DNA from: Thermoanaerobaculia bacterium
GTDB taxonomy: Bacteria > Acidobacteriota > Thermoanaerobaculia > UBA5066 > DATFVB01
Reading direction: 5' to 3'
Length of the DNA: 64,000 nt
Assembly: GCA_035717485.1 (NCBI GenBank)
Contig: DASTIQ010000315.1
Location: 471-64,470 of the forward strand
Below are positions 18,167 to 61,462 of the stretch, piece after piece. The notes under the pieces are model-generated. The model worked only from the letters and a program-made list of their open reading frames with translations, ran no database searches and was not told the origin of the DNA. The position numbers and the translations under genes are program-made. Position 1 is the stretch's first letter, and every line of letters begins with the position of its first letter.

Positions 18167-20329
18167 ATGAAGAGCTTCAGGATCGTTCTGATCGCGGTGT
18201 GCGCGGCGGCGGGCGTCGCGCTCGGGGCCGAAACGAAAGCCAAGGCGAAACCGCCCGCCGATGCCGATTGTCTCGGCTGCCACTCCGACGCGACGTTGAA
18301 ATCCGCGAAGGGCCGCTCCCTCTTCGTCGCCGCCGCGAAGCTCGCCCGGTCCGTTCACGGAGCCGCGGGTCTTTCCTGCGTGGACTGCCACGCCGGATTC
18401 GACCCCGGAGAGATTCCCCACAAGGCGAAGATCACCCCGGTCGCGTGCGTCGGATGCCACGACGACGTCGCCGCCAAGCACCCGTTCCACCGCGATCTCG
18501 CGGAAGCGAAGAAGGGCGGCGCCGCGCCCGCGGTCGACTGCCAGTCGTGCCACGGCGGACACGGCGTCGTTCCCGTCTCGTCGCGCGCGTTCCTGCTCAA
18601 GAGCGACCCGGCCGCGGGCTGCGGATCGTGCCACGACGACGTCGTCGCCGAATTCCGCTTCTCGGCGCACGGGCGCGCGCTCGCGCGCTCCGTCAAGGGA
18701 GCGCCGGACTGCCTCACGTGCCATCGCCAGGACATGATCGGCTCGATCGGCGTGCCGTATGCGACCCGCAAGATCGCGCAGGAGAAGATGTGCCTCTCCT
18801 GTCATCTCAAGAACCCCGCGATCCGCGCGATGATGCCGAGCGCCGGGTTCATCGAATCCTTCGAGACGAGCGTCCACGGACGCGCGCTCGCGCGCGGAAA
18901 CGGTGCGGCGCCGACCTGCATCGACTGTCACGGAACCCACGGCATGAGCAACCCCCTCTCGCCGGGCTCGAACGTCGGGAAGCTCGAGATTCCGCACCTC
19001 TGCGCGAAGTGCCACAAGACGGAAGCCGCCCAGTACGCCACGAGCGTTCACGGAACCGCGCTCGCTCGCGGGATGAAGGACGCCCCCGTCTGCACCGACT
19101 GCCACGGCGAGCACGCCGTGCTCCCGCGCCGTGATCCGAACTCCCCGATCGCCGCGGCGAACGTCTCGGCGCGCGTCTGCACGCCCTGCCACGGCTCGCT
19201 GCGGCTCGCGCAGAAATTCAACCTGCCCACCGACCGCTCCCGGAGCTACGCGGACAGCTTCCACGGCATGGATTCCCGCGGGGGGGTCGCCTCGGTCGCC
19301 AACTGCGCGAGCTGCCACGGCGCGCACGACATCCTTCCGTCTTCCGATCCGCGCTCGCGCGTCGCCAAGGCGAACCTCGCCTCGACCTGCGGCCAGAACG
19401 GGTGTCACCCGAAGGCGAACGACCGGTTCGCGCTCGGCCGCGTCCACGTCACCGGCACGAGGGACAAGGACCCGCTCCTCTTCGTGATCGCGACGATCTA
19501 CATCGTGCTCATCGCCGGCGTCATCGGCGGGATGCTCGCGCACAACGCGCTCGACTTCCTCCGGAAGCTCCGGCACCGATTCCGGATCCGGATGGGCAAG
19601 GACGTCGAAGCTCCCGCGGGGAACGGCGTCTACCTGCGAATGACGCTCTTCGAGCGGCTCCAGCACGGGGGCGTCGCCCTCCCGTTCATCCTGCTCGTCA
19701 TCACCGGCTTCATGCTCCACTACCCCGACGCCGCCTGGGTGCGGCTCATCCGGCGGATGAACCCGAGGGCGTTCGAGCTCCGGAGCGTCCTCCACCGCGC
19801 GGCGGGCGTCGTGATGACGGTGACGAGCCTCGTCCACGTCGCCTACATCGTCCTCTCCGCGCGCGGCCGCCAGCTCGTCGCGGATCTCTGGCTGCGCCCG
19901 AAGGACCTCACGGACGCCTGGAAGACCCTCAAGTACAACCTCGGTCTCTCGAAAGAGAAGCCGATGTACGGAAGGTTCTCGTACGCCGAAAAGGCGGAGT
20001 ACTGGGCGCTGGTCTGGGGCACGATCGTCATGACGGTCACCGGCGTCGTCATGTGGTTCGACAACACCTTCATCGGACTCCTGACGAAGCTCGGCTACGA
20101 CGTCTCCCGCACGATCCACTTCTACGAGGCGTGGCTCGCGTTCCTCGCGATCGTCGTGTGGCACCTGTATTTCGTGATCTTCAACCCGGACGAGTACCCG
20201 ATGAATCTCGCCTGGCTCACCGGAATGCTCTCCGAGAAGGAAATGGAAGAGGAACACCCGCTCGAGCTCGAGCGGCTTCGCCGTTCCGGACCCGAGCCCG
20301 GCGCCCCCGCACCGGCGCCCCCGGCATGA
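18167..20329 (+). CDS. Multihaem cytochrome c (12 CxxCH plus one CX4CH) fused to a C-terminal dihaem cytochrome b membrane domain (CbcL-like quinol oxidoreductase)
   Basis: Signal peptide. 12 CxxCH motifs plus CGQNGCH. The C-terminal 300 aa have 5 TM helices with conserved His pairs, like HydC/FdnI-type cytochrome b. Confidence 0.8.
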   Translation: MKSFRIVLIAVCAAAGVALGAETKAKAKPPADADCLGCHSDATLKSAKGRSLFVAAAKLARSVHGAAGLSCVDCHAGFDPGEIPHKAKITPVACVGCHDDVAAKHPFHRDLAEAKKGGAAPAVDCQSCHGGHGVVPVSSRAFLLKSDPAAGCGSCHDDVVAEFRFSAHGRALARSVKGAPDCLTCHRQDMIGSIGVPYATRKIAQEKMCLSCHLKNPAIRAMMPSAGFIESFETSVHGRALARGNGAAPTCIDCHGTHGMSNPLSPGSNVGKLEIPHLCAKCHKTEAAQYATSVHGTALARGMKDAPVCTDCHGEHAVLPRRDPNSPIAAANVSARVCTPCHGSLRLAQKFNLPTDRSRSYADSFHGMDSRGGVASVANCASCHGAHDILPSSDPRSRVAKANLASTCGQNGCHPKANDRFALGRVHVTGTRDKDPLLFVIATIYIVLIAGVIGGMLAHNALDFLRKLRHRFRIRMGKDVEAPAGNGVYLRMTLFERLQHGGVALPFILLVITGFMLHYPDAAWVRLIRRMNPRAFELRSVLHRAAGVVMTVTSLVHVAYIVLSARGRQLVADLWLRPKDLTDAWKTLKYNLGLSKEKPMYGRFSYAEKAEYWALVWGTIVMTVTGVVMWFDNTFIGLLTKLGYDVSRTIHFYEAWLAFLAIVVWHLYFVIFNPDEYPMNLAWLTGMLSEKEMEEEHPLELERLRRSGPEPGAPAPAPPA

Positions 20330-23106
20330 TCCGTCCGGCGAGAACGCTCGCGCTCCTGTTCGCGGTCCTGGCGCTCGCCCCCGCGGCCGGGGCCGCGAAC
20401 CCGGCCCCCTCGAAGGACGACTGCCTCGCGTGCCACGAACCGGGCGTCCGCGTCGGGCGGCGGAAAGCCGGCGAGGCCCCGCCGTTCAACGCGGCGGCCC
20501 TGAAATCCTCTCCCCACGCGGACCTCGACTGCGTTTCCTGCCATGCCGACATCAAGGAAGTCCCTCATCCGGACAAGCTCGCGCGCGTGGACTGCGGCTC
20601 CTGCCACTCGGACGAGGGAAAGCAGTATGCGGCGAGCGTGCACGGCCGGAAGAGCGCCGCCGGCGATCTCTACGCCCCGGGCTGCAAGAGCTGCCACGGC
20701 ACGCACGACGTTCTCCGTCCCGGAACGCCCGGTTCGCCGACCTCGACGATGCAGATCCCGCGCCTCTGCGGCGGCTGCCACCGCGAAGGGTCCGCCGTCA
20801 GCCTCACCCGGAAGATCCCGCAGACGAACATCCTCGGCAACTACATGGACAGCATCCACGGCGAAGGTCTCTTCAAGCGCGGGCTGATCGTCGCCGCCGT
20901 CTGCACGAGCTGTCACACGGCGCACTTCGTGCTCCCCCACAACGACCCCCGCTCCTCGATCGCCAAGGAGAACATCGCGAAGACCTGCACGAAGTGCCAC
21001 GCGCAGATCGAGATCGTCCACCGCAAGGTGATCCGGGGCGAGCTCTGGGAGAAGCAGCCGCACCTGATTCCCGCCTGCGTCGACTGCCACTCTCCGCACA
21101 AGATCCGGAAGGTCTTCTACTCGCAGGGAATGGCGGACCAGGACTGCCTGCGCTGCCACGGCGACCCGAACCTGAAGGGAACCCGGGGCGGCGAGACCGT
21201 CTCCATGTTCACGGACGCGAAGGAGCTCGCGCATTCCCGCCACGCGAAGATCGCCTGCGGGCAGTGCCACACCGGCGGCGACCCCTCGAAGACCCGCCCC
21301 TGCCTCACGATCGCGGCGCGCGTCGACTGCTCGATCTGCCACGCCGCCGTCGTCGACCAGTACAAGGAAAGCCGACACGGTCAGCTCTTCGCGCAGGGCA
21401 GCCCCGACGCGCCGTCGTGCCAGGACTGCCACAGTCCGCACGGGACGTTGTCCAAGACCGACCTGAATTCCCCGACGTTCTCGCGGAACGTCCCGGCGCT
21501 GTGCGCGCGCTGCCATCGCGCGGGCGAGAAGGCGGCCGTCCGATACCGGGGCGCCCAGAAGAACATCGTCGAGAACTATCTCGAGAGCATCCACGGCAAG
21601 GGCCTCATGGAGTCGGGGCTCACGGTCACCGCCAACTGCGCCGACTGCCACAGCGCGCACCGCGAGCTGCCGTCGGCCGACCCCCGGTCGACCGTGAATC
21701 GCGCCAACGTCGCCCTGACCTGCGCAAAGTGCCACCGCGGGATCTACGAGCTCTTCAACGCGAGCGTCCATTCGACGGCCGTGACCCGGACGAACAAGAC
21801 GCTTCCGGTCTGCAGCGACTGCCACTCGGCTCACAGCATCCAGCGGACGGACCTCTCGAACTTCCGCCTCCACATCATGGACCAGTGCGGCCGATGCCAC
21901 GAGAAGATCGCGGCGACGTACTTCGACACGTTCCACGGAAAGGTCTCGAAGCTCGGGTATCTCGCGACCGCCAAGTGCTACGACTGCCACGGGTCGCACG
22001 ACATCCTTCCCGTGACCGATCCCCGCTCGCGCCTCTCCCGCGCCAACATCGTCAAGACGTGCGGGAAGTGCCACAGCGGTTCGCACCGCCAGTTCGCCGG
22101 ATATCTCACGCACGCGACGCACCACGACCCGAAGCGCTACCCCTTCCTCTTCTACACGTTCTGGGGGATGACGTTCCTCCTCGTCGGAACGCTCACGTTC
22201 GCCGGCACCCACACCGCGCTCTGGCTCCGCCGCTCGCTCGCCGACGGAAAGGCCCCCGCCGCGGCCGAGGCCCAGGCCGACCGCGTCTACGTCCGCCGCT
22301 TCACGACGTTCCAGCGGAACCTGCACCTGATGGTGATCGGCAGTTTCCTCGGGCTCGCGGCGACCGGCATGACGCTGAAGTTCTCCTACGCGCCGTGGGC
22401 GCGCGTCCTCGCGCGGCTCTTCGGCGGATTCGTCGCGGCCGGCCTGATCCACCGCTTCTGCGCGGTCGTGACCTTCACCTATTTCGGGCTCCACCTCTGG
22501 GACCTCGTCCGCCAGAAGCGGAAGAGCGGGAAGAGCTGGATCCGGCTCGTCTTCGGTCCGGACAGCATGATGCTCAACCGCCGCGACTGGCGCGAGTTCG
22601 TCGGATCGATCAAGTGGTTCCTGAAGAAGGGGCCGCGGCCCCGCTACGGGCGCTGGACCTACTGGGAGAAGTTCGACTACTTCGCGGTGTTCTGGGGCGT
22701 GGCCGTGATCGGCATGACCGGCCTGATCCTCTGGTTCCCGACCGTCTTCACGCGAGTGCTGCCCGGGTGGATGGTGAACGTGGCGACGACGATCCACAGC
22801 GACGAGGCGCTGCTCGCCGTGTGCTTCATCTTCAGCATCCATTTCTTCAACACCCACTTCCGTCCGGAGAAGTTCCCGATCGACACCGTGATCTTCACGA
22901 CGGGAGTTCCGCTCGAGGAGCTCAAGCACGACCGGCCGCTCGAGTACCGGCAGCTTCGCGAGAGCGGAGAGCTCGAGCGCCTGAAGATGCCGGCGCCGAT
23001 CCCGCTGGCGAACCGGATGTGGCGCCGTTTCGGCTTCACCGCGCTCGCGATCGGGCTCGTGCTGATCGGGCTGATCCTGTATTCGATGCTCTTCCTCTAT
23101 CGGTGA
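20326..23106 (+). CDS. Second multihaem cytochrome c (19 CxxCH) fused to a dihaem cytochrome b membrane domain (CbcL-like paralogue)
   Basis: ATGA overlap with the previous gene. Signal peptide MIRPARTLALLFAVLALAPAAGA. 19 CxxCH motifs. C-terminal multi-TM domain with His ligands. The upstream part of ORF 19402 is an artefact. Confidence 0.8.
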   Translation: MIRPARTLALLFAVLALAPAAGAANPAPSKDDCLACHEPGVRVGRRKAGEAPPFNAAALKSSPHADLDCVSCHADIKEVPHPDKLARVDCGSCHSDEGKQYAASVHGRKSAAGDLYAPGCKSCHGTHDVLRPGTPGSPTSTMQIPRLCGGCHREGSAVSLTRKIPQTNILGNYMDSIHGEGLFKRGLIVAAVCTSCHTAHFVLPHNDPRSSIAKENIAKTCTKCHAQIEIVHRKVIRGELWEKQPHLIPACVDCHSPHKIRKVFYSQGMADQDCLRCHGDPNLKGTRGGETVSMFTDAKELAHSRHAKIACGQCHTGGDPSKTRPCLTIAARVDCSICHAAVVDQYKESRHGQLFAQGSPDAPSCQDCHSPHGTLSKTDLNSPTFSRNVPALCARCHRAGEKAAVRYRGAQKNIVENYLESIHGKGLMESGLTVTANCADCHSAHRELPSADPRSTVNRANVALTCAKCHRGIYELFNASVHSTAVTRTNKTLPVCSDCHSAHSIQRTDLSNFRLHIMDQCGRCHEKIAATYFDTFHGKVSKLGYLATAKCYDCHGSHDILPVTDPRSRLSRANIVKTCGKCHSGSHRQFAGYLTHATHHDPKRYPFLFYTFWGMTFLLVGTLTFAGTHTALWLRRSLADGKAPAAAEAQADRVYVRRFTTFQRNLHLMVIGSFLGLAATGMTLKFSYAPWARVLARLFGGFVAAGLIHRFCAVVTFTYFGLHLWDLVRQKRKSGKSWIRLVFGPDSMMLNRRDWREFVGSIKWFLKKGPRPRYGRWTYWEKFDYFAVFWGVAVIGMTGLILWFPTVFTRVLPGWMVNVATTIHSDEALLAVCFIFSIHFFNTHFRPEKFPIDTVIFTTGVPLEELKHDRPLEYRQLRESGELERLKMPAPIPLANRMWRRFGFTALAIGLVLIGLILYSMLFLYR

Positions 23107-23179
23107 CCGGAGCGAGGAATAAAATCGACCATCGCCCGCCGAGGACGCGGGCCGAACGACAGAAAGGGGACCGGCGGGA

Positions 23180-24622
23180 ATGAAGGATTTCGCGAAGAAC
23201 TGGCTGCGCCCGATCGTCTATCTGGGGCAGAACCCCATGAGCATCCTCGGCGCGGTCCTCACGACGAGTTCGGCGCTGACTCTCGCCGGCTTCTGGGTGT
23301 TCGAGATCCTGCAGACACGACCGCTGCCCCCCTACGCGGGGATCGTCCTCTACCTCGTCCTTCCCGGCATCTTCGTGATCGGCCTCGTCCTGATGCCGGT
23401 CGGCGCGCTCTGGCAGCGCCGCAGCCTCAAGCGCGCCGGGAAGCTTCCCCACGAGTATCCGCGGATCGACCTGCGGCACCCCGTGCTCCGGCGCGCGGCC
23501 GTGCTCGTCGCGATCGCCACCGGGTTGAACGTGATGATTCTCGGAACCGCTTCCTACCTCGGCGTGGAGTACATGGACTCGGTGCAGTTCTGCGGACAGA
23601 GCTGCCACACGGTGATGGCCCCGGAATACACCGCCTACAAGGATTCCCCCCACTCCCGCGTCGCCTGCGTCGAGTGCCACATCGGAGCGGGAGCGCCGTG
23701 GTTCGTGCGCTCCAAGATCTCCGGCGTGCGGCAGGTCTTCGCGGTGGCGTTGAAGACGTACTCGACGCCGATCCCGTCTCCGGTCCAGCACTTGCGGCCG
23801 GCGCGCGAGACGTGCGAGCGCTGCCACTGGCCGCAGCGGTTCGTCGGCGACAAGCTGCTCGTCCGTCCGAAGTTCGCCGACGACGCCGCGAACACGAAGT
23901 CGTACGACGTCCTCGTGATGAAGATCGGGGGCCACACCTGGCAGGGGGCCGTCGGAATCCACGGCCGGCACCTCGCCCAGGCGTCGCGCGTGTCGTATGT
24001 CTCGACGGACGCGCACCGGCAGGTGATCCCCGTCGTCCGCTACACCGACGATTCCGGCAAGACGATCGAGTACGTCTCGACGGACGTCAAGACGACTCCC
24101 GAGCAGCTGCAGCGCGGCGAGAAGCGGACGATGGACTGCATGGACTGCCACAACCGGCCCTCCCACACGTTTCAGATACCCGAGAAGGCCGTCGACCAGG
24201 CGATGGCGGCCGGTCGGATCAGTCCGGAGCTCCCGTTCGTCAAGAAAGAGACCGTCGCGCTCCTGAAGACCCCGTATGCGGACCGGGATGCGGCGTCGGC
24301 GGCGATCGGCGAAAAGATGGCGGAGTTCTATCGGACGTCCTATCCGGACGTCTTCCGGACGCATCGCGCGCAGATCGAGGCGGCCGCCGACGAAGCGCGG
24401 CAGATCTATCTGCGGAACGTCTTCCCCGCGATGAAGATCGGATGGGGCACCTACCCGAACAATCTCGGGCACGAGGACTTCCTCGGCTGCTTCCGCTGCC
24501 ACGACGGCAGCCACCAGTCGAAGGACGGGAAGGTCATCACCCAGGACTGCGACGCGTGCCACGCCCTGCTGGCGCAGGACGAATCGAACCCGAAGATCCT
24601 CGCCGAGCTCGGGATGAAATGA
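23180..24622 (+). CDS. Membrane-anchored multihaem cytochrome c, NapC/NirT-family, ImcH-like (6 CxxCH, 3 N-terminal TM helices)
   Basis: Three N-terminal hydrophobic helices, then a periplasmic domain with CGQSCH, CVECH, CERCH, CMDCH, CFRCH and CDACH. Confidence 0.75.
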   Translation: MKDFAKNWLRPIVYLGQNPMSILGAVLTTSSALTLAGFWVFEILQTRPLPPYAGIVLYLVLPGIFVIGLVLMPVGALWQRRSLKRAGKLPHEYPRIDLRHPVLRRAAVLVAIATGLNVMILGTASYLGVEYMDSVQFCGQSCHTVMAPEYTAYKDSPHSRVACVECHIGAGAPWFVRSKISGVRQVFAVALKTYSTPIPSPVQHLRPARETCERCHWPQRFVGDKLLVRPKFADDAANTKSYDVLVMKIGGHTWQGAVGIHGRHLAQASRVSYVSTDAHRQVIPVVRYTDDSGKTIEYVSTDVKTTPEQLQRGEKRTMDCMDCHNRPSHTFQIPEKAVDQAMAAGRISPELPFVKKETVALLKTPYADRDAASAAIGEKMAEFYRTSYPDVFRTHRAQIEAAADEARQIYLRNVFPAMKIGWGTYPNNLGHEDFLGCFRCHDGSHQSKDGKVITQDCDACHALLAQDESNPKILAELGMK

Positions 24623-30082: not shown

Positions 30083-31177
30083 CTATCCGGGGCCCGGCAC
30101 CCGCATCATCCGAAGCGGCCGGCGGCCCTCCCGGCGGAACTTCGGGAAGGCGAGGGCCCGGATCGCGCGACGGGAGTCGCGCGGGATCGTGAGGTACGCG
30201 GTTCCCCATTTGAGCGCCACCCAGAGCTCGTCGGGAAACGGGAGCTTCCCGTGGCCGGCCGGAAGAACGCGTTCGGTGAGCTCCCGCTCGAGCCGGCGCT
30301 TCTCGGAGGGCGGGAGCGCCTCACCGCGGGCGTTCGCCGCGAGCCGCTCCGCGACCGCCGCTTCGATCCTCGCCCGTTTCCGGCGGCCGGCCGTGAAGAC
30401 CGGCGGGTCGAGCGCTTCGTCCCAGCCGGGTTCGACGAAGCGGCACACGTCGACCTCGCGGCGCCGGACGAGGAGTCCCGTCGCCGCGCTCCGGCCGAAC
30501 ACCGGGTCGTTCCCCTCGAACCAGCTCGACGCGAGACGATAGCCGGCGGTCGTCGCTTCGGCATCCGCGCGGCTCACGACGCCCGTCGACCGCGCGCCCA
30601 TGAGACCGCGTTCGTCGGCCATCGCGTCCCGGAACGCGTCCTCGGCGTTTCGGATCGGCGACCCGCGTTGTCGCCCCGCGTTCCAGGCGAAGAAGCCGTT
30701 GGAGAAGAGATGGGTGAGCTTGTCGGTGCCGATCCGGACGCCGCAGAGTCGGAAGGTCGGCGCGAGAGACCGCATCGCGAGCCGGTCGTAGCGGCTCTCG
30801 TCGTAGATGCTCTCCCGGCCGAGGAGGACGATCCTCTCGAACCGCGGCCAACCCGGGCAGTCGTTCCGTTCGACGCAGGCTCCGAACGACGGAAGGAGGC
30901 GGTCGTCGAACTTGCGGAGGACCTCCGCGCGGTACTCCTGAACGAACGCGAGCTCGACCGTGACGTCGTCGTCGCGGAGGGGATCTCCCCCGGCTGCCAG
31001 GCGGGCGTTCGCGCGCGCGGCGATCCGGGCGAGCGCCGCGTTCACGATCCCGTTCAGCTTTCCCGCGGACTCCTCCAGAGGAACGTACCGGTACGTCAGG
31101 TTGTCGGTCTCGGCGGCCGCCGCGATTCCGGGCAGGAGCGCGACCAGGAGGGCCGCCGGGATGCCGACGGCGCGCCA
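30083..31177 (-). CDS. Hypothetical secreted protein (start uncertain; apparent 1-nt frameshift at the signal peptide)
   Basis: About 360-aa non-repetitive protein (AETDNLTYRYVPLEES...). The hydrophobic signal core VGIPAALLVALLPGIAAAAE has no in-frame start. ATG GCG CGC lies 1 nt out of frame. Confidence 0.45.
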   Translation of the reverse strand, partial: WRAVGIPAALLVALLPGIAAAAETDNLTYRYVPLEESAGKLNGIVNAALARIAARANARLAAGGDPLRDDDVTVELAFVQEYRAEVLRKFDDRLLPSFGACVERNDCPGWPRFERIVLLGRESIYDESRYDRLAMRSLAPTFRLCGVRIGTDKLTHLFSNGFFAWNAGRQRGSPIRNAEDAFRDAMADERGLMGARSTGVVSRADAEATTAGYRLASSWFEGNDPVFGRSAATGLLVRRREVDVCRFVEPGWDEALDPPVFTAGRRKRARIEAAVAERLAANARGEALPPSEKRRLERELTERVLPAGHGKLPFPDELWVALKWGTAYLTIPRDSRRAIRALAFPKFRREGRRPLRMMRVPGPG

Positions 31178-31347
31178 TGACCCATGGATCTTCCACCCCC
31201 GCCGATTCGACGTGGCCGCCTCCCGTCGCCGGCGCCCGCTCACGGTCTCCGACGTCGAAGTCGTGCGGCGTCGCGCTCGGGGTTTCGGGATTGCAGGAAC
31301 CGGGCCGGGTTCCCGGGAGCCACCGCCGGGTGCCGAGCTCCGGGAGT

Positions 31348-32208
31348 TCAGCGCCGCCCGAGCAGGACGACCCCGCCCATGCGCCTCATTTCCTCGCGCC
31401 GGGCGGGCGAGCTGATGCGGGAGAAGAGCCGGTAGAGCCAGGCCATCTTCGGTTTGCGGTCGAGCCGAATCCCCTCCTCGATCGTGGAGCGGAACTCGAG
31501 CTCGTTCCATCCGTGGGGCTCGAAGAACCTCGTCCCTTCGGCCGGCGCGAAACGGAACGGTGCGTTGGCGGCGCCGACGTGCCTGCCGACCCTCCGGTCG
31601 AGCATTTTCTTGAGGCGCGGAGAGGCGAGGTCGATGAGCCAGAGGCGCATCGCCGGCTCGGCATGGAGGTCGTCGGAGAGAGAGGCCACCTGCTCCGGCG
31701 CGAGGTACGCGAGGAGACCTTCGGTCACGACGAGGACCGCCGCGGCGCCGTCCGCCGCGCGGGAGAAGAGCCGGCGTCGGGCATCGGGGTCGGACAGGTC
31801 GGCCGCCACCCGCTCGAGCGCGCAGACCGGCTCCTCGCCGGCGAGTTTCTCCTCCTTGTAGGCGATCATCGGCGGAAGATCGGCCTCGATCCAGCGAAGG
31901 GACCTCGGCAGCGGCAGCCGGTACGGACGGGCGTCGAGGCCGGCGGCGAGGTTGAGGACGCAATCCACGCCCTCCCGGGCGATCGACCCGAGGATGATCT
32001 CGTCCATCACCGCGGTGCGCACGATCATCGGCCAGGCGAGATCGCCGACCTTCATCCGGCGGACGATCTCTTCCCCGCGATCCGCGACGAGCGTCTTCGC
32101 GAGCGGATCCCGGAAGATCGCGTCCGGGCGCGCGCTCTCCATCACGCGGTACTGGGCGACCCAGAGCGCGGTGTCGGAGACGTTCTTCAGCGTCGGCTCG
32201 TCGGGCAT
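31348..32208 (-). CDS. Class I SAM-dependent methyltransferase (Ppm1/LCMT-like O-methyltransferase family)
   Basis: 286 aa. Motif I VLNLAAGLDARPYRL. Resembles mycobacterial Omt-type / leucine carboxyl methyltransferase-like proteins. Confidence 0.65.
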   Translation of the reverse strand: MPDEPTLKNVSDTALWVAQYRVMESARPDAIFRDPLAKTLVADRGEEIVRRMKVGDLAWPMIVRTAVMDEIILGSIAREGVDCVLNLAAGLDARPYRLPLPRSLRWIEADLPPMIAYKEEKLAGEEPVCALERVAADLSDPDARRRLFSRAADGAAAVLVVTEGLLAYLAPEQVASLSDDLHAEPAMRLWLIDLASPRLKKMLDRRVGRHVGAANAPFRFAPAEGTRFFEPHGWNELEFRSTIEEGIRLDRKPKMAWLYRLFSRISSPARREEMRRMGGVVLLGRR

Positions 32209-32497
32209 GCGTGAATGATACGGGAGGCCACATGGGATTCACCGTAAGGTCCCGGATTCGTCACGAGTGAGAACCGCGTGCCGCCTGGAACGAGGACCCG
32301 TTCCGTCGAACGACCTCCACCCGATCGTGCCCGGGGGCTATCGCATCGCGGAGAGCTTTCGCCGAAGTAACCGGGGCGAAAGCTCCGCGATGCGGGAGCG
32401 GCGGCGAAGGGGGTGGCGGCGGCGCGGTCGAGTCGCTCGTTCGACGAGCCGTGCCGCCGTTACACGCTACCGGTCCCCGAGCCCGCTCCCGCGACGG

Positions 32498-34447
32498 TCA
32501 GTTGTGCCAGCGGATGTAGACGCCGTACCGATTCGCGTCGTAGTTCGCGAGCGATCCGGCGAGCGTCGCCTTTTCCTCGTACTTGTCCCGGTTCCACTCC
32601 CCGATGAGCGAAAAATTCTTCGCCACGTCGACGGCGGCGCGAACGGCCGCGCGATCGATCGTGAAGGGGAAAGAACCCTCGTTCTCGAAGCGGCCGACGG
32701 CGCCATCGATCGACACCGGCGCGAAGATCAGGGTCAGCCCGCCGTCGAACGACCGGCCGTTCTCGCGGTGGAACGACGTGTCGATCGAGAAGTCCTCGGG
32801 ATGCCGGAAGAGGATCCGGCTGTCGGATTCGTACTTCTCGGCGGAAACTCGCAGGCGCAGGAACTTCGCCGGAGAGCCCTCCGCCTCGCCGCCGTACTGG
32901 CGGATCCTGGCGTCGTATCCGATCCCCGTGCGGTCGTTCGAGGCATCGATCTGCTCGCCGGTCAGGCTCAGGCGGAAGACGTCCTTGAGCGCCCAGGCGG
33001 CGCGGAGACGGTATCGGTCACGGTCCAGGAAGTCGGTGCGGACGACGGGATCGTCGGCACGGTCGCGACGCCAGTCGGCGCCGAGAGTCAGGCCGCTCGC
33101 GGTGAATTTCGCCCCGAGATCGAATCCGTTGATCCGCCGGTCGAAGGAACCGTCCTGCGCGCCGGGAACGACGATCTCTTCCGGCCCTTCGACGACGGTC
33201 ACGCGCTGCTTGTTCTGGGAGCCGCCGGCGAAGACCGAGAGCCCTCCGAACGCCCGCGCATCGACCCGCGCGTCGAAGATCTCGTCCGTGCGCTCGACCG
33301 AGGTCTTCGCCTCGATCGTCTGGAGGAGATCGCGCGGATCGAGACCCGCAAACGTCACCGTCTGGAGATACAGATCCGAAATCAGCGCGAATCCGTCGAG
33401 CTCCTGGTGATTCTTCGACCAACCCGCGGAGAGGTCGATCCCGTCGGCGAGATTCGCCTCGACGCGGCCGCTCCCCCGCCATGCCGTGTTCTCGGCGCGC
33501 GAGGAGATCGTGTCGGTCAGGCCGGCGAAGATCCGGCTGATCCCGAAGGAGACGAGGTTCCCCGCGAAGTCCTCGCGCTCCGTGACGTCGGCTTCCGCGG
33601 CCGCGCGCACGTACGAGCCGATGAGCTTCACGCGACTGCCCAGGCGCGCCGCGACGGCGGCGTTCGTGATCGGCGTGTTCGCGTCGTTCTTGGTCGTGCG
33701 ATGGAAGTTGTCGAGCGACACGGGAACGCCCAGCACCGTTCCGGAGCCGTTGCCGGCCCCCGCTCCCGGCACGAGGTCCTGGGTCTCGACCTCGTGGAGC
33801 TTTCGCCAGCCCTGGGTGACCTGGCCGGTGACGGGACCCGCGTCGAATGCGGCGCCCCCGTAGATCTCCTGATCGTCCTCGTCGAGGTTCTGGGTGAGCC
33901 GGAACTCGTCGCCGCCGGCGGAGTACGTCGTCCGGCCGGGCCCCTCGTAACGGTTGTAGACGTAGCCGACGATCGGCGTGATCCAGTAGCCGGGAAGGAA
34001 GCGCAGCTCGACTCCCAGGATGTTCCGGGTGCGGTCGTACGTGTGCTCGCCGGGAGTGATCCCTTCGGAGATCAGCGGGTTGGCGAACGCCGGAAGCGCG
34101 GAGAACATCTCCGTCCGCCGGTAGTTGAGCCGCAGGTCGTACTTGCCGGCGAGGCCCGCCTGCAGGCGGAACGATCCCGCCGGTCCGGCGCCCAGGTCGT
34201 TCGCGTCGAGGCGGAACTGGTCGAAGAGTCCCGCGCCCGCGGGACCGCCGGCGGACAGGCTCAGGGCGCGGAGGAGGAAACCCTCGCGCTCGTTGATCTG
34301 GCTCCGGTACATGTCTTCGTTCCCGCTGACGTCGAGGAACCGGTATCCGAGCTCGACGTCCACCGGGACGGCGGGGGGATCGGCCGCCAGGACGGCGCTC
34401 GAAGCGCCGGCGGCGATCAGGGCGATGACGAGGCGGAGCTTCTTCAT
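32498..34447 (-). CDS. Outer-membrane beta-barrel porin, MtrB/PioB/MtoB-like
   Basis: Signal peptide MKKLRLVIALIAAGASSAVLAA. 649 aa with alternating beta-strand pattern, rich in Gly/Asp/Arg/aromatic residues. Immediately downstream of the decahaem gene with an 11-nt gap. Confidence 0.6.
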   Translation of the reverse strand: MKKLRLVIALIAAGASSAVLAADPPAVPVDVELGYRFLDVSGNEDMYRSQINEREGFLLRALSLSAGGPAGAGLFDQFRLDANDLGAGPAGSFRLQAGLAGKYDLRLNYRRTEMFSALPAFANPLISEGITPGEHTYDRTRNILGVELRFLPGYWITPIVGYVYNRYEGPGRTTYSAGGDEFRLTQNLDEDDQEIYGGAAFDAGPVTGQVTQGWRKLHEVETQDLVPGAGAGNGSGTVLGVPVSLDNFHRTTKNDANTPITNAAVAARLGSRVKLIGSYVRAAAEADVTEREDFAGNLVSFGISRIFAGLTDTISSRAENTAWRGSGRVEANLADGIDLSAGWSKNHQELDGFALISDLYLQTVTFAGLDPRDLLQTIEAKTSVERTDEIFDARVDARAFGGLSVFAGGSQNKQRVTVVEGPEEIVVPGAQDGSFDRRINGFDLGAKFTASGLTLGADWRRDRADDPVVRTDFLDRDRYRLRAAWALKDVFRLSLTGEQIDASNDRTGIGYDARIRQYGGEAEGSPAKFLRLRVSAEKYESDSRILFRHPEDFSIDTSFHRENGRSFDGGLTLIFAPVSIDGAVGRFENEGSFPFTIDRAAVRAAVDVAKNFSLIGEWNRDKYEEKATLAGSLANYDANRYGVYIRWHN

Positions 34448-34457
34448 CGCGTCCTCC

Positions 34458-35369
34458 CTACTTCAAAAGCGTCGGCGAACGGTTCGAACCGTGGATCGCC
34501 GTGTGACAGACCGTGCAGTTCTGGTATCGCGGCAGGAGGATGTTGTGAAAGGAAGGCGGCTGCGAGCCGAGGGTTCCCGCGGCGATCGGCGAGTGGCATT
34601 CGAGGCAGAGCTGGGAGACCTGGGCGCGCTTGAGCTGCTTCGGATTCGACGAGCCGTGCGCCTCGTGGCAGCTCAGGCAGTTGCCGGCGACCCCGGACAC
34701 GTGCTCGAAGACGAAGGGCCCCTTCTTCTCGGCGTGACAGGAGAGACACGGGAGCTCGTCGGCCCGGGTGAATCGCAGCGCGGAGTCGCGCGGGAGCCCG
34801 TGCGGATCGTGGCAGGAAGCGCAGTCCATCCCTGCCTGGAGCCGGTGCGCGAACGGCTTGTCGCGGAATCCCGCCGCCTTCCCGGGATGGCACGACTCGC
34901 AGAGCGCGACCGAATCCATCACGAGGAGATGCGGCCGCGCCGGGGCGGCGTGGATCGAGTGGCAGCTCAGGCAGTTGACCGTCGCCGAGTTGCCGTGGAC
35001 GCCGTTCCGGAACGAGGCGTGATCGGAAGGATGGTCGTGACAGGTCAGGCAGAACTCGGCGCCGGTCCGGCCGTGCAGCTTGCGCTCGACCGGCTTCTCC
35101 CCGGAGGACTCGACGTGCGCCGACGTGTCGCCGTGGCAGCTCGAGCAGACCGCATCCCCCGACACGCGAGCGCGACCCGCCAGGAATGGAATCCGTGCGT
35201 GGGGATTGCGGGAGAAGTCCTTCGCCTGATCGTGGCAGTCCGCGCACGCGGCGACGGCGCTCTTTTCGGAAGGGGGCGCCGCGGGCGGGGAAGCCTGCGC
35301 GGCGGCGAGGGCGGCCGCGCCGAAGATGACCGCGGCCATCGCCGCGCGAAGTCCGAGCGTGATCTTCAT
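34458..35369 (-). CDS. Periplasmic decahaem c-type cytochrome, MtrA/MtoA/PioA-like
   Basis: 303 aa, signal peptide, exactly 10 CxxCH motifs. Same size and haem density as MtrA. Confidence 0.8.
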   Translation of the reverse strand: MKITLGLRAAMAAVIFGAAALAAAQASPPAAPPSEKSAVAACADCHDQAKDFSRNPHARIPFLAGRARVSGDAVCSSCHGDTSAHVESSGEKPVERKLHGRTGAEFCLTCHDHPSDHASFRNGVHGNSATVNCLSCHSIHAAPARPHLLVMDSVALCESCHPGKAAGFRDKPFAHRLQAGMDCASCHDPHGLPRDSALRFTRADELPCLSCHAEKKGPFVFEHVSGVAGNCLSCHEAHGSSNPKQLKRAQVSQLCLECHSPIAAGTLGSQPPSFHNILLPRYQNCTVCHTAIHGSNRSPTLLK

Positions 35370-35469
35370 TTCGCCGCGCCTCCTCGCACTCCTCCGGCCC
35401 TGCGGTTCTCCGCCGGCCGGATTTCCCCCGGTCCGCCGTCAATCGGCGGACCGAAGGAACGGACCCGCG

Positions 35470-37557
35470 TCACCGCGCGTGCACCTTGTCGACCGAGAAG
35501 TCATCCTCAGGAGCGTGGCAGGCGGCGCAGGCTTCGCCGAACGGCGCCGTCATCACGTACGCATGCGCCGCGGCTTCCTGCGTGTCGTGGCAGCCGAGGC
35601 AGGCCGCCGCCGTCGTCTGTTGCGGCGTGTACCACTCCAGTGGTGGAGGAGGAGTCTGGACCGGGAGGTTCGTGGTCGGCAGCGGGAGCTCCTGGGAACC
35701 GTTGACATGGCATTTGGCGCAGTCCCGCAGATCTCCCGGGAACAGCACTTCCCGGAAATTTTTCTCGGAGACGATGAAATCGCGGGTCAGGTTTTCGCCG
35801 CGGTGAATCCGGTGGATGAAGCGCTGGAAGCTGATCGACTGCGGCACCGGATCCGCGCCGTCGTTCTTATTCGGATTGTGGCAGATCACGCATTCCTCCG
35901 GGGTCCGCCGCTGGGTGCCGTGGAACGCGATCTGGTCGTGGCAGACGTTGCAGTTCGCGAGCGACACGACGGTCCGACGCGGGACCGGCGCGGGGTCGGT
36001 CACGGCGAAATCCAGGATCGGGTTCAGCGCGGATTCGTCCTGCTCGATGTCCGCGCCGCCGTCCCCACGGTGGAGCGTGATCGACCGCCGGGTATCGACC
36101 GAAAGGCGCCAGGTTCCCGCCGCGTCGGCGGGGATCGCGTTCGTGAACGTGTAGGTCGCGTTCGTGCCGTCGAAGACGAGCGCCGCCGTTCCTGCGCCGT
36201 TCGGTTCCTGAATGTAGGTCCCGATGTCGGTCGTCGGGCCTCCGATGAGGAACCGGCAGCGTGCGAGCGTGTTCGGGTCGACCGGCGTGCCGTCGCCGTT
36301 GGTGACCTGGAACGTGACGACCGGCTTCTCGCCCGGAGCCGTGTGCGCGATCGACAGGATCTTCGCGTTCAGACCCGGGAGCTGGGTGGACTTCGTCGGA
36401 TTCGTGTGCGCGCCCAGGATCGACGCGTCGAACTCCGTGTCTCCCTGCGGAACGTGGCACGACGCGCAGGCGCCGTCATCGACGGCGATCCCGCCCGGAT
36501 GGTTCTCACCGGTCGCGAAATTCACGTTGTCGTGGCAGGAGCCGCACGCCGCCTGGCTCGGATACGTGTAGTAATTCGTCGCCTGAGTGGCCGGCGCCGC
36601 ATGACACTTCGTGCAATTCCGCACGTCCTGGGGGAACACGACGGTCGAGAAATCGGAGACGCCATGGCTGTTGATGATCTGGTACGGCGTGCCCGCCGCG
36701 ACGCTCGGCAGGTCTGCGCCCCGGTGGATCTTGTGGATCAGGACCTTGAAATCGACGGTGTTTCCGGTGTCGGGGTTGACGCTCTGCGGCGAATGGCACA
36801 GAACGCAGAGCTTCACGTCCTGGCGCGAGCCGCCGTGGGCGGAGAGCGGGTTGTGGCAGTTGTTGCAGGCGGCCGTGTCGATCATGTCCCACTTGTCGAC
36901 GACGGCCTGGGTGTCAGGACGGAAATCGAATTCGGCGTTGGCGTAGTAGTTCTTGTCGAAGACGTTGGGGTCGACCGCGATGAGGTTCCGGGTCGCGTAG
37001 ATGCCGAGCGTCGTGGTCTTTGTCCCGTCGTAGCTCGCCGGGAGAACCGTCTTGAACGTATAGGTCGAATGCCCGAGCGAAAGGTCGTTGAACCCCGCCA
37101 GTCCGGCGCCGTCGGCGCCCGCCTGCGTGACGGTCTGCTGAATCGGGCTCGTCGGAAGCGACGTGGCCTGCCGGGTCGTGTAGGAGGTGTACTGCCTCTG
37201 GACGGGGTCCCACCAGGCGAGCACGAAGCTCATGCTGAGCGCCCCCGGCGTGACCTTTCCAAGCCGGTCGAGCGGCTGGCCGGCATCGTCGTAGTACGTG
37301 ACGTCGGCGACCACCTTGCGGTCCGAACCGATCGTGACGCTGTTGATGGCGATGTGGAATCCGGGCCGGATGTACCCGAACTGGTCCGTCGTGAGGTAAT
37401 GCTCCTTCGCGCTGGCCGCGTACGCGCTCGGGCTCGTGAGAGTGACCGGCCGCGACGAGATCGCCGCCGGCGCCCCTCGATCCCCGACGCCGCCGAACGG
37501 GACGACGATTCCGGCAGCTGACATTCCCAAAACGACGAGGCGCCTGAGGATCTGCAT
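35470..37557 (-). CDS. Decahaem c-type cytochrome with MtrC/OmcA-like four-domain layout
   Basis: 695 aa, signal peptide, 10 CxxCH in two pentahaem blocks. The blocks are separated by non-haem domains of about 150-220 aa, like MtrC domains I-IV. Confidence 0.65.
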   Translation of the reverse strand: MQILRRLVVLGMSAAGIVVPFGGVGDRGAPAAISSRPVTLTSPSAYAASAKEHYLTTDQFGYIRPGFHIAINSVTIGSDRKVVADVTYYDDAGQPLDRLGKVTPGALSMSFVLAWWDPVQRQYTSYTTRQATSLPTSPIQQTVTQAGADGAGLAGFNDLSLGHSTYTFKTVLPASYDGTKTTTLGIYATRNLIAVDPNVFDKNYYANAEFDFRPDTQAVVDKWDMIDTAACNNCHNPLSAHGGSRQDVKLCVLCHSPQSVNPDTGNTVDFKVLIHKIHRGADLPSVAAGTPYQIINSHGVSDFSTVVFPQDVRNCTKCHAAPATQATNYYTYPSQAACGSCHDNVNFATGENHPGGIAVDDGACASCHVPQGDTEFDASILGAHTNPTKSTQLPGLNAKILSIAHTAPGEKPVVTFQVTNGDGTPVDPNTLARCRFLIGGPTTDIGTYIQEPNGAGTAALVFDGTNATYTFTNAIPADAAGTWRLSVDTRRSITLHRGDGGADIEQDESALNPILDFAVTDPAPVPRRTVVSLANCNVCHDQIAFHGTQRRTPEECVICHNPNKNDGADPVPQSISFQRFIHRIHRGENLTRDFIVSEKNFREVLFPGDLRDCAKCHVNGSQELPLPTTNLPVQTPPPPLEWYTPQQTTAAACLGCHDTQEAAAHAYVMTAPFGEACAACHAPEDDFSVDKVHAR

Positions 37558-37682
37558 TTCATACCTCCCGGATATGTGGCCATTCTAGGCACGCCGACCC
37601 AGTGCTCCGTTTGATGAAAACGAATCAAATTGTTCGGGCGGCGCATTCTTCGCGGCTCGATCGACGGACGTAAGATCCGCGC

Positions 37683-41782: not shown

Positions 41783-44700
41783 TTGGCCATCGTTCGCCCG
41801 CCGGGCCCCGGCCCGCTGGAAATCATCCTCGCCGAATACGGCATCAATGCGGACTACGCCCTCGAGCTCTATGACCGGTGGCGGAGCGATCCCGCCCTCG
41901 TCGACGAGGACTGGCGCGAATACTTCGAGGGGCTGACCGGTGCGCCCGCGCGGGCCGCGTCGCCGGCCACTCCGTCCGCTCCCGTCTCCCCCGCTCCCCC
42001 GGCGCCCGTCTCCCAGGCTCCGTCGGCCGCGCCCCCGCCGCGCCCGGCGCCGGAGCCTCCGGCGGGAGAGCGGCAGCCGATCCGCGGCGCGGCGCTCCAG
42101 ATCGCGCAGAACATGAAGGCGAGCCTCGAGGTGCCCACGGCGACGTCGCAGCGGCAGGTCGCGATCAAGCTCCTCGACGAGAATCGCCGGCTCGCGAACG
42201 AATATCGCGCCTCCAACGACGAGAGCAAGATCTCGTTCACGCACCTGGTCGCCTGGGCCGCCCTCCGCGCGCTCCACGATTTCCCGCGCCTCAACGACGC
42301 GTTCACCGGGGGACCCGATCCCGCGCGTCTCGCGCGGACGGAGGTCCATCTCGGGATCGCGGTCGACGTCCAGAAACGGGACGGCAGCCGGAGCCTCCTC
42401 GTTCCGAACATCAAGAACGCCCACACGATGTCCTTCGGCGAGTTCGTCGGTGCGATGGACGACGTCGTGTCGCGCGCGCGCGCGGGAAAGCTCGCGCTCG
42501 CCGACTTCCAGGGCACGACGGTCTCCCTCACGAACCCCGGGCCGATGGGAACCACGGCCTCGATCGCCCGGCTGATGCCGGGGCAGGGGCTGATCCTCGC
42601 GACCGGCGCGATCGACTGGCCGGCCGGATTCTCCGCGATGGCGCCGGAGGCGATCTCGAACCTCGGGATCAGCAAGGTCATGACGCTTTCCTGCACCTAC
42701 GATCACCGGATCATCCAGGGGGCGGAGTCGGGCGCCTTCCTCGGGCGAATCGAGGAGCTCCTCCTCGGGGAGCACGGCTTCTACGAGGAGATCTTCGAAG
42801 ACCTCGCGATCCCCCATCGCCCGTTTCATTGGGCCGTCGACCTCAACCCCGCGTTCGGCGGCGCGGACGTGTCGCGGCTCCGCGAGATCGAGAACCAGGC
42901 GCGGGTCCTCGAGCTCATCAACGCCTACCGGGTCCGCGGGCATCTCGTCGCCGACATCGACCCTCTTCGCGCCGCGCCTCCGCCCCGGGTCCCGGAGCTC
43001 GACCTCGAGACGTACGGACTGACCATCTGGGATCTCGACCGGGAGTTCATCACCGGAGGGCTCGGCGGATCGGAAACGCTCCCGCTCCGGAAGATCCTCG
43101 AGATCATGCGCCGCTCCTATTGCGGGAAGATCGGCGTCGAGTACCGGTTCATCCAGGACGGCGCGGAGAAGGAATGGCTGCGCCGGCGGATCGGAGCGCT
43201 CCCGGAGCCGCCGCCGGCCGAGGTTCGGAAGCAGATCCTCTGGAAGCTCCTCTCGGCCGAGGTCTTCGAGAAATTCCTGCACAACCGGTTCCTCGGCCAG
43301 AAGCGCTTTTCGATCGAGGGCGTCGAAACGCTGATCCCGTTCCTCGACCAGCTCGTTTCGGGAGCGGGAGCCCGCGGGATCGACGAGATCACGATCGGAA
43401 TGTCGCATCGCGGCCGTCTCAACGTCATCGCGAACGTGATCGGGCGTTTCTGCGAGCGGATCTTCGCGAGCTTCGAGGGCGTCGTCCATCCCGACTTCCC
43501 CGCCGACGAGGGGGACGTCAAGTACCACCGCGGGGCGCAGGGCGCCCGCGACGTCGGCGGCCGCCGCGTCTCGATCGAGCTCGTCCCGAACCCGTCGCAT
43601 CTCGAGTTCGTCGACGCGGTCGTCGAGGGCATCGTGCGCGCGCGACAGGACAAGCTCGGCGGCCGCGGCCCGGCGGTCTGGAACCGGGTCCTCCCCGTCC
43701 TCGTCCATGGAGACGCGGCGTTCGCCGGGCAGGGAATCGTCGCGGAGACGCTGAACCTCGCGCAGCTCCGCGGCTACCGCACCGGCGGAACGATCCACGT
43801 CGTCGTCAATAACCAGATCGGCTTCACGACCCCGCCGGGCGAGAGCCGCTCGTCGCTCTATTCGACCGACATGGCGAAGATCAACCAGGTGCCCATCTTC
43901 CACGTGAACGCCGACGAGCCGGAGGCGGCGCATCGCGTCCTCCAGATCGCCCTCGATTACCGCCAGGAGTTCCACAAGGACGCCGTCGTCGACCTGATCG
44001 GGTTCCGCCGGCACGGTCACAACGAAGGGGACGAGCCGAGCTACACCCAGCCGGTGATGTACCGGCGGGTCCGAGAGCACCCGGGGGTGTTCGCGCTCTA
44101 CGCGAAGAAGCTCGTTCGCGAGAAGGTCGTCACCGAGGACGAGGTCCGGGAGCTCGAAGCGGAACGGCTCCGCCGCTACGAGGCCGCCCTCGACCGCGCG
44201 AAGGAGATCGCCGCCGGCGGCGGCGCGCCGCGCTGGGACGAGCGACCGGCCCCGGCGGCTCCCCCGCCCGCGCCCGAAACCGCGATCGCGGCGGAGGCTT
44301 TCGACGCGATCGGCTCGGCGCTCGCGAAGCTCCCGCGCGATTTCCACGTCAACCCGAAGGTCGCGACCCTCCTCGCGCGGCGCGGGAAGATGGCCCGCGG
44401 CGAGTCTCCCGTCGACTGGGCGTCCGCGGAGGCGTTCGCGTTCGGCTCTCTCCTGCGGGAAGGAACTCCCGTGCGTCTCTCGGGCGAAGACACCAGCCGC
44501 GGGACGTTCTCCCAGCGCCACATGGTCCTCCACGACACGGTCACCGGCGCGCGATGGACGCCGCTCGAGTCCGTCGCCCCGGGCGTCCGCTTCTCCGTCT
44601 TCGACAGCGCCCTGTCCGAGGCGGGAGTGCTCGGTTTCGAGTACGGGTACAGCGTCGAAGCGCCGGAGACGCTCACCCTGTGGGAGGCGCAGTACGGGGA

Positions 44701-61362: not shown

Positions 61363-61462
61363 TCCGCCGGGCGCAGATCCGCCCGCCCGCCGGAGAGCCG
61401 GGCGAGAAGGCGGAGTGATCGCGCCGGAGCGTGTCGCGACGCGCGCGAAGCGCCAAGCCGGA

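Follow-up and report, generated by a model that had tools for sequence, protein, structure and literature searches.

A candidate MtrCAB-type electron conduit with a remote MtrB-like barrel in a Thermoanaerobaculia bacterium

Do bacteria of the class Thermoanaerobaculia possess a route for passing electrons across their outer membrane? The question is raised by three adjacent genes, here called C, A and B, in a 64,000-nucleotide stretch of DNA from a Thermoanaerobaculia bacterium (phylum Acidobacteriota; GenBank assembly GCA_035717485.1, contig DASTIQ010000315.1, positions 471 to 64,470 of the forward strand), to which we refer as the window. A sequence-only reading had taken these genes for an MtrC-MtrA-MtrB-like trio, and the identification holds: a family model supports it for C, an alignment with MtrA of the solved Shewanella complex (PDB 6r2q) for A, and a barrel model together with a profile-profile match for B. 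With a probability of roughly 0.78, we consider the trio to encode an Mtr-type porin-cytochrome complex that would carry electrons across the outer membrane of this bacterium and outward, in extracellular electron transfer. The three genes are as follows.

35470..37557, minus strand: C, OmcA/MtrC-family decahaem c-type cytochrome, 695 aa (TIGR03507; PF22113 twice; 10 CxxCH)
34458..35369, minus strand: A, MtrA/DmsE-type periplasmic decahaem cytochrome, 303 aa (6r2q_A; TIGR03508 near its cutoff; 10 CxxCH)
32498..34447, minus strand: B, predicted outer-membrane beta-barrel of about 26 strands, 649 aa, remote MtrB homologue

All three open reading frames (ORFs) lie on the minus strand in the order C-A-B, at the coordinates assigned earlier. 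The spacer between C and A measures 100 nt, as had been estimated, and B starts 10 nt, rather than 11 nt, after A. The coding signature is strong in each gene, with G+C fractions of 0.87–0.89 at third codon positions (GC3) and 0.47–0.56 at second positions (GC2); GGGAGG or GAGGAGG precedes every start, and every product begins with a hydrophobic N-terminal segment. Recent horizontal transfer finds no support: the GC content of the window, 66–72%, shows no compositional break at the cluster, and the identity of B declines smoothly from 85% to 42% across metagenome-assembled genomes (MAGs) of Acidobacteriota.

Judged by its sequence, C is clearly a member of the OmcA/MtrC family. It scores 432.4 bits against the family model TIGR03507 (cutoff 209.3), with residues 79–693 on positions 5–672 of 672, and PF22113, the model for domains II and IV of MtrC/MtrF, matches twice. 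The best match among PDB sequences is MtrF (E 1.8e-33), with OmcA, MtrC and UndA as the other solved relatives, and identity to Shewanella MtrC is 29%. The protein contains exactly 10 CxxCH motifs in two blocks, at residues 231–364 and 536–677, which are set apart by non-haem stretches of about 230 and 170 aa. This gives a succession of beta domain, pentahaem domain, second beta domain and second pentahaem domain, in agreement with its earlier description as a secreted decahaem protein with two pentahaem blocks in the four-domain layout of MtrC/OmcA. An AlphaFold (AF2) model of C computed from 29 homologues bears out part of the structure that had been anticipated: the beta domains, at residues of about 45–225 and 390–525, reach a predicted local distance difference test score (pLDDT) of 75–90, and the pentahaem domains are of low confidence. 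The overall pLDDT is 56.8, too low for anything about haem packing to be read from the model. When it was submitted to Foldseek, the top 16 PDB matches were all MtrC, OmcA, UndA or MtrF.

The second protein, A, carries exactly 10 CxxCH motifs in 303 residues, confirming the count and the MtrA/MtoA/PioA-like size reported for it, along with 14 further histidines, which suffice for bis-His ligation. Its N-terminus, MKITLGLRAAMAAVIFGAAALAAAQA, contains a Sec-type signal peptide ending in AAAQA. Residues 49–298 align with residues 77–326 of MtrA in the solved complex (6r2q_A; E 1.3e-30, 250 residues), and identity to Shewanella MtrA is 32% (E 1e-31); homology to the MtrA/DmsE-type decahaem cytochromes is clear from these alignments. 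The best NCBIfam model for A is TIGR03508, the DmsE family, followed by that of the GSU2203 decahaem family, at 137 bits (cutoff 325).

The preference of A for the DmsE model raises an alternative, in which the conduit would serve a dedicated extracellular or periplasmic reductase of a soluble substrate, as in DmsEFAB, and not mineral respiration. Shewanella does reuse Mtr-type modules for the reduction of DMSO and iodate (PMC9732548). DmsEFAB systems, however, have adjacent DmsAB-type catalytic subunits, none of which were found between 24.6 and 45.4 kb of the window, and no molybdopterin or FeS reductase domain occurs among the neighbouring genes in that interval. The neighbours within about 8 kb on each side encode a GGDEF protein, a CBS protein, an LCM-family methyltransferase, PFK, a DUF5996 protein and a P-type ATPase, with no molybdoenzyme or other catalytic subunit among them, and the conserved partner of A is an MtrC/OmcA decahaem protein instead of a DmsAB pair. 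A reductase-linked conduit of this kind is therefore very unlikely in our judgement.

The third protein, B, contains no cysteine in its 649 residues. We modelled it with AF2, which yielded a barrel of about 26 long strands without a plug domain (mean pLDDT 78.9; predicted template modelling score, pTM, 0.73), where 26–28 strands had been expected. Together with the hydrophobic N-terminus, the model upholds the view of B as a signal-peptide beta-barrel like MtrB/PioB, and the best structural match by two independent methods is MtrB. At the level of single sequences, the relationship escapes detection: among PDB sequences, neither phmmer nor a 25-sequence profile returned a match, and BLASTP against Shewanella MtrB gave nothing significant. 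We therefore turned to comparisons of profiles. An exhaustive profile search with the B family retrieved 1047 cluster representatives at E<=1e-3, and distant full-length matches from this search were used to widen the family alignment (A3). A second alignment (A2) comprised Shewanella MtrB proteins, collected after taking the MtrB sequence from the PDB alignment. When A3 was compared with A2 by hhalign, the two matched with a probability of 98.1% (E 1.4e-13) over 525 collinear columns, 77–645 against 96–694. Because barrels can yield spurious profile matches, controls were run with the MtrB alignment reversed or block-shuffled; these scored 19.5–21.2 and 32.6–49.3, respectively, and the real pair scored 114.7. 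Since the match is collinear and well above the controls, we regard B, by profile comparison, as a remote member of the MtrB/PioB superfamily that lies outside the current family models. In the wider B family, sub-threshold matches to PF11854 occur in 3 of 32 members, and one of the 32 matches TIGR03509.

Could B instead be an ordinary diffusion porin, or an unrelated outer-membrane protein, beside two periplasmic cytochromes, with no wire across the membrane? B and many of its relatives are labelled 'hypothetical protein' or 'Gram-negative porin' in public annotation, PF13609 (Porin_4) is assigned to some of the relatives, and no curated MtrB model matches B. The predicted barrel, however, has about 26 strands and no plug, compared with the 16–18 strands of porins and the plugged 22-strand barrels of transporters. 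Beyond the structural matches to MtrB and a full-length profile-profile score far above the controls, the gene follows that for A at a mere 10 nt, and an MtrA-like neighbour accompanies it in 76 of 80 related loci and even beside relatives of 20–25% identity. An ordinary porin is thus exceedingly improbable, and we retain the MtrB-like assignment.

The earlier reading had also suggested that the sequences might be divergent enough to form a distinct porin-cytochrome lineage. This applies mainly to B, which goes unrecognised by the curated MtrB/PioB models; C and A are ordinary family members at 29–32% identity to their Shewanella counterparts. Nor would such a lineage be new to the databases, since NCBI and JGI already name orthologues of C 'OmcA/MtrC family decaheme c-type cytochrome [Thermoanaerobaculia bacterium]'.

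A separate observation concerns Geobacter. The model NF041027 ('GSU2204 family CXXCH-containing (seleno)protein') matches 11 of the 32 B-family members weakly, with 17–32 bits against a cutoff of 350; the A3 members with such matches include P0196, P0202, P0204, P0205, P0257, P0258 and P0262. The B protein of the window itself does not match the GSU2204 model. The uncharacterised Geobacter pair GSU2203/GSU2204 may be a distant MtrA/MtrB-like module.

How far is the arrangement conserved? A one-genome-per-species scan of the GTDB set found relatives of B in 121 genomes, and all locus counts given here refer to the best 80 of these 121. In 79 of the 80, the MAG is labelled Acidobacteriota or Acidobacteria, Thermoanaerobaculia or Ca. 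Sulfomarinibacter(aceae). Nearly without exception, B is preceded by two 10-haem ORFs, one of about 700 aa and one of about 310 aa. By tblastn, 76 of the 80 loci have A upstream of B and 63 have C, the shortfalls being largely due to contig ends, so that the gene order and composition likened earlier to Shewanella mtrCAB do recur. Even relatives of B at 20–25% identity (loci L081 and L082) are situated behind MtrA-like genes, and L082 also has an MtrC-like gene. Conservation in 63–80 of 80 related loci argues that the trio is not a chance association.

The sole exception in labelling is locus L032 (DATKCF010000009.1, a 5.2-kb contig), which is binned as Longimicrobiales (Gemmatimonadota); it, too, has the C-A-B trio, and its B shows 46% identity. 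Misbinning of the contig or a transfer could account for this. The three proteins also diverge unequally. Between the window and locus L010, from the closest complete genome, identity is 91% for A and 84% for B but only 71% for C, and the best database matches are at 74% for C and 99% for B, which fits diversification of a surface-exposed cytochrome. Two loci, L072 (2690–6916) and L080 (2719–6884), contain two tandem MtrC-like decahaem genes upstream of A-B.

How would such a complex work? Following the solved Shewanella MtrCAB structure, A would be exported to the periplasm and would thread the lumen of the approximately 26-strand barrel B, which would form an insulating sheath around this wire of haems. 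A would then meet C at the cell surface, where we infer C to be located, and C would pass electrons outward via its two pentahaem domains. Its physiological acceptors could be Fe(III) or Mn(IV) oxides, humic substances, electrodes or possibly other cells. On the inner side, electrons from the quinol pool would probably enter through membrane cytochromes encoded at 18.2–24.6 kb of the window:

18167..20329, plus strand: 12-haem c-type cytochrome with a C-terminal dihaem-b-type membrane domain, CbcL/MtrH/MtoC-like candidate quinol dehydrogenase
20326..23106, plus strand: 19-haem c-type cytochrome with a C-terminal membrane (cytochrome b-like) domain; its start overlaps the preceding stop (ATGA)
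23180..24622, plus strand: membrane-anchored NapC/NirT-type multihaem cytochrome, 480 aa, with an ImcH-like layout

The first of these proteins has 12 CxxCH motifs and predicted transmembrane (TM) helices within residues 437–672, and matches PF01292 (1.6e-17) and the FdnI-like model TIGR01583 (2.4e-15). The second has 19 CxxCH motifs, TM helices within residues 666–924 and a match to PF01292 at 2.2e-4. Both resemble the CbcL/MtrH/MtoC proteins in that many c-type haems are fused to a multi-helix b-type domain, and both fall within the 3–23 CxxCH motifs and the maximum length of about 1034 aa that Zhong and Shi (PMC6295460) report for these proteins. The 480-aa protein has three N-terminal TM helices, five CxxCH motifs and one CxxxCH, and matches PF03264 (6.1e-10) and NrfH (1.7e-13). 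It is like ImcH in combining three TM helices with a NapC/NirT-like multihaem domain, but differs in haem motif number, as 6–10 are described for ImcH homologues (PMC6295460). All three proteins match at the level of domains, and no curated model confirms membership of the CbcL or ImcH families. Of the 80 loci, 26 encode a homologue of the CbcL-like protein no more than 8 kb from B, 16 one of the 19-haem protein and 31 one of the NapC/NirT-like protein; often these genes lie directly downstream. Judging from this repeated gene neighbourhood only, the cytochromes at 18167–24622 are likely to be the inner-membrane entry point of the same pathway, in the role that CymA has in Shewanella.

The same conduit might run in the opposite direction, supplying the periplasm and the quinone pool with electrons whose source would be Fe(II) outside the cell, reduced humics, a cathode or a partner cell, as proposed for MtoAB/PioAB. 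Fe(II) oxidisers do use MtrA/MtrB-type modules, CbcL-like genes accompany the cluster, and CbcL/MtrH/MtoC-type proteins are direction-neutral, occurring both in Fe(III) reducers and in Fe(II) oxidisers (PMC6295460). Nothing in the sequence fixes the direction. The MtoAB/PioAB clusters, however, are two-gene modules that consist of an MtrA-type decahaem protein and a large MtrB/PioB-superfamily barrel, without an MtrC/OmcA partner; here, a full-length C precedes A as the first gene of the operon and is kept in at least 63 of 80 loci. The candidate quinol oxidases linked to the cluster include the NapC/NirT/ImcH-like type, and to date the homologues of ImcH have been associated with reducers only (PMC6295460). 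Thermoanaerobaculum aquaticum, the only relative in culture, is cited in PMC8528874 as reducing the oxides of Fe(III) and Mn(IV), and one MtrC and two MtrA proteins have been reported for a T. aquaticum MAG (PMC9671151). We favour outward flow on account of the MtrC partner, the lack of a catalytic reductase next to the trio and the reduction of Fe(III) and Mn(IV) by T. aquaticum; an inward-directed conduit appears unlikely.

Several observations weigh against an outward-directed Mtr-type conduit. Profile searches had been proposed as a check on the trio, and their outcome was mixed: C matches its family model, but A narrowly misses TIGR03508, scoring 187.0 bits, about 5 below the cutoff of 192.2 (model positions 3–257 of 258), and B is unmatched by any Pfam or NCBIfam model at E<=1, PF11854 and TIGR03509 included. 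The homology of B to MtrB hangs on the broader alignment A3, as the narrow B-family profile (A1) reaches a probability of only 3% against MtrB in hhalign. The haem domains in the model of C are of low confidence. C has a signal-like N-terminus but no lipobox, there being no cysteine before residue 231, and a lipobox-like motif is found in just one of 57 orthologous ORFs; the lipid anchor that holds Shewanella MtrC at the surface is therefore absent here. The lipobox is a feature of Shewanella MtrC/OmcA and does not belong to the definition of the TIGR03507 family. The membrane cytochrome genes of the window lie 7.9 kb from the trio and converge on it, outside its operon. A B-family barrel could not be confirmed in T. 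aquaticum among the best 80 of the 121 loci. More generally, the support consists of homology and synteny, and the sequence does not reveal the direction of electron flow.

The closest parallel is nevertheless Shewanella MtrCAB (PDB 6r2q; S. oneidensis and S. baltica). The two share the C-A-B order on one strand, a 10-haem OmcA/MtrC surface cytochrome with two pentahaem blocks split by beta domains, and a periplasmic decahaem protein of about 300–330 aa followed by an approximately 26-strand barrel of 650–700 aa. Identity is low, at the values given above for C and A, and undetectable by BLASTP for B. MtrB of the solved complex (6r2q_B) has CKGC at residues 42–45, whereas B lacks an N-terminal CXXC. 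The motif is confined to the gammaproteobacterial MtrB proteins and is not a defining feature of the family as a whole. Shewanella MtrC is lipidated, in contrast to C. Shewanella has omcA and mtrDEF paralogues, and none are adjacent in this window; it uses CymA, which is absent here, CbcL-like and NapC/NirT-like membrane cytochromes being linked instead.

Geobacter Pcc systems and the GSU2203/GSU2204 pair follow the same logic of a periplasmic multihaem protein, a barrel and a surface multihaem protein. The scores against the GSU2203 and GSU2204 models are far under their cutoffs, both for A and for the relatives of B. The Geobacter OmaB/OmbB/OmcB complex is composed of an octahaem protein, a barrel of about 20 strands and a dodecahaem lipoprotein, which are not homologous to Mtr proteins. 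The present pattern of 10 haems, 10 haems and about 26 strands, with Mtr-homologous cytochromes, does not match it.

The type of system is well known, and so is its presence in the phylum Acidobacteriota. Baker et al. (2022, mBio, PMC8805035) described mtrCAB from three phyla, with five Acidobacteriia among the organisms (Group 5, Acidobacteriia/Bryobacterales). That survey used PSI-BLAST from Aeromonas MtrA, MtrB and MtrC and required all three genes to be clustered; Acidobacteriia is the only class of this phylum that it reports, and Thermoanaerobaculia are never mentioned. By its description, Group 5 is like the window in having clustered mtrC, mtrA and mtrB in Acidobacteriota and no mtrC duplication. 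Such duplication was reported absent from Group 5, in contrast to the tandem MtrC-like genes of L072 and L080. On sequence grounds, a barrel of the B type would probably escape a census of this design. A cluster of multihaem and beta-barrel genes in Ca. Sulfomarinibacter and T. aquaticum was described by Flieder et al. (2021), who do not mention Mtr. We considered whether it is the present trio and rejected this, as their supplementary table lists an NHL-repeat protein, a PPIase and two hypothetical barrels. We did not find descriptions of a class-wide Thermoanaerobaculia lineage, of the unrecognised barrel family, of a non-lipidated MtrC or of recurrent CbcL/ImcH-like neighbours.

We give even odds to the broader proposal that B founds, in this analysis, a large unannotated MtrB-like family that is invisible to PF11854 and TIGR03509, occurs in all but one of the 80 loci in Thermoanaerobaculia/Acidobacteriota MAGs and is paired with MtrA-like and mostly also with MtrC-like genes. 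If this is true, the class as a whole would owe Mtr-type extracellular electron transfer to ancient, vertical inheritance, and its conduit would combine a non-lipidated MtrC with quinol oxidases of the CbcL/ImcH-like kind in place of CymA. Surveys that need a recognisable MtrB would then systematically under-count the conduit in soils and sediments. Soils, sediments and hot springs commonly harbour Thermoanaerobaculia, of which, to our knowledge, only one species has been cultured. For that species, an MtrCAB-type cluster that is intact, spans the class and is linked to candidate quinol oxidases would offer a testable candidate mechanism of its Fe(III)/Mn(IV) reduction. The consequence for annotation is practical: with the barrel called 'hypothetical' or 'porin', pipelines and censuses for which all of MtrA, MtrB and MtrC are required can overlook these organisms, and a hidden Markov model built from the B barrel family would close the gap. 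The view of how such conduits work is unchanged, and no new mechanism is proposed.

Which genes are transcribed together with the trio? Three non-coding features bear on this.

37558..37682: intergenic region of 125 nt between C and a divergent GGDEF diguanylate cyclase gene, presumed cluster promoter
35425..35457, minus strand: GC-rich hairpin in the 100-nt C-A spacer (-28.9 kcal/mol, z-score -3.4)
32342..32394, minus strand: long perfect hairpin about 105 nt 3' of the B stop (-40.4 kcal/mol, z-score -5.2, 0 of 200 shuffles as stable)

A scan of the presumed promoter region for sigma-70 promoters returned 0 sites, consensus scans being uninformative in a GC-rich genome, as is the scan for canonical terminators. 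The hairpin after B has no U-tract and is present in a single copy within the window. The same hairpin is found in locus L001, and L010 has a different GC hairpin at that place; it is the probable 3' end of a C-A-B transcript. The sequence-only reading had an S-adenosylmethionine-dependent methyltransferase and a secreted protein follow on the same strand, and both genes exist (31348–32208 and 30083–31243, respectively), but its suggestion that they may be co-transcribed with the trio did not hold up: they stand beside B in one and in none of the 80 loci, and the -40 kcal/mol hairpin falls in the 289-nt spacer after B. The GGDEF gene is near the cluster in three of 80 loci, a few close relatives only, and among the 80 the LCM methyltransferase and PFK genes are shared with L010 only. 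Because the flanking genes are not conserved with the cluster and a hairpin follows B, the transcription unit most likely consists of C-A-B alone. The hairpin in the C-A spacer could be a putative attenuator or RNA-stability element, and the ratio of C to A and B expression might be set by it.

The methyltransferase matches PF04072 (LCM family). The secreted protein, a 386-aa product with a signal-like N-terminus, has no Pfam match and no counterpart in any of the 80 related loci; its ORF fills a 1.27-kb stretch that is missing from L010, where the methyltransferase gene abuts PFK. A 291-aa ORF at 30321–31196, which the earlier reading had listed, is in the wrong frame: its translation is Arg/Pro-rich junk and its GC peak is at codon position 1, and the real ORF is that at 30083–31243.

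Three further observations concern the remainder of the window. Across 45493–49020, codon-position GC gives no clean gene call over 3.5 kb; a 1175-aa minus-strand ORF with atypical GC at positions 1 and 2 overlaps three short plus-strand ORFs of normal signature. A run of minus-strand genes at 59075–63867 encodes haem biosynthesis enzymes (uroporphyrinogen decarboxylase, a HemN-like radical-SAM oxidase, ferrochelatase and an amine-oxidase-family, protoporphyrinogen oxidase-like protein), which are housekeeping genes, yet consistent with a haem-hungry organism. Finally, the plus-strand gene at 41783–45418 encodes a 1211-aa 2-oxoglutarate dehydrogenase E1 with an N-terminal 2-oxoacid acyltransferase (E2 catalytic) domain, a fused Kgd/OdhA-like E1/E2 architecture that is best known from Actinobacteria.

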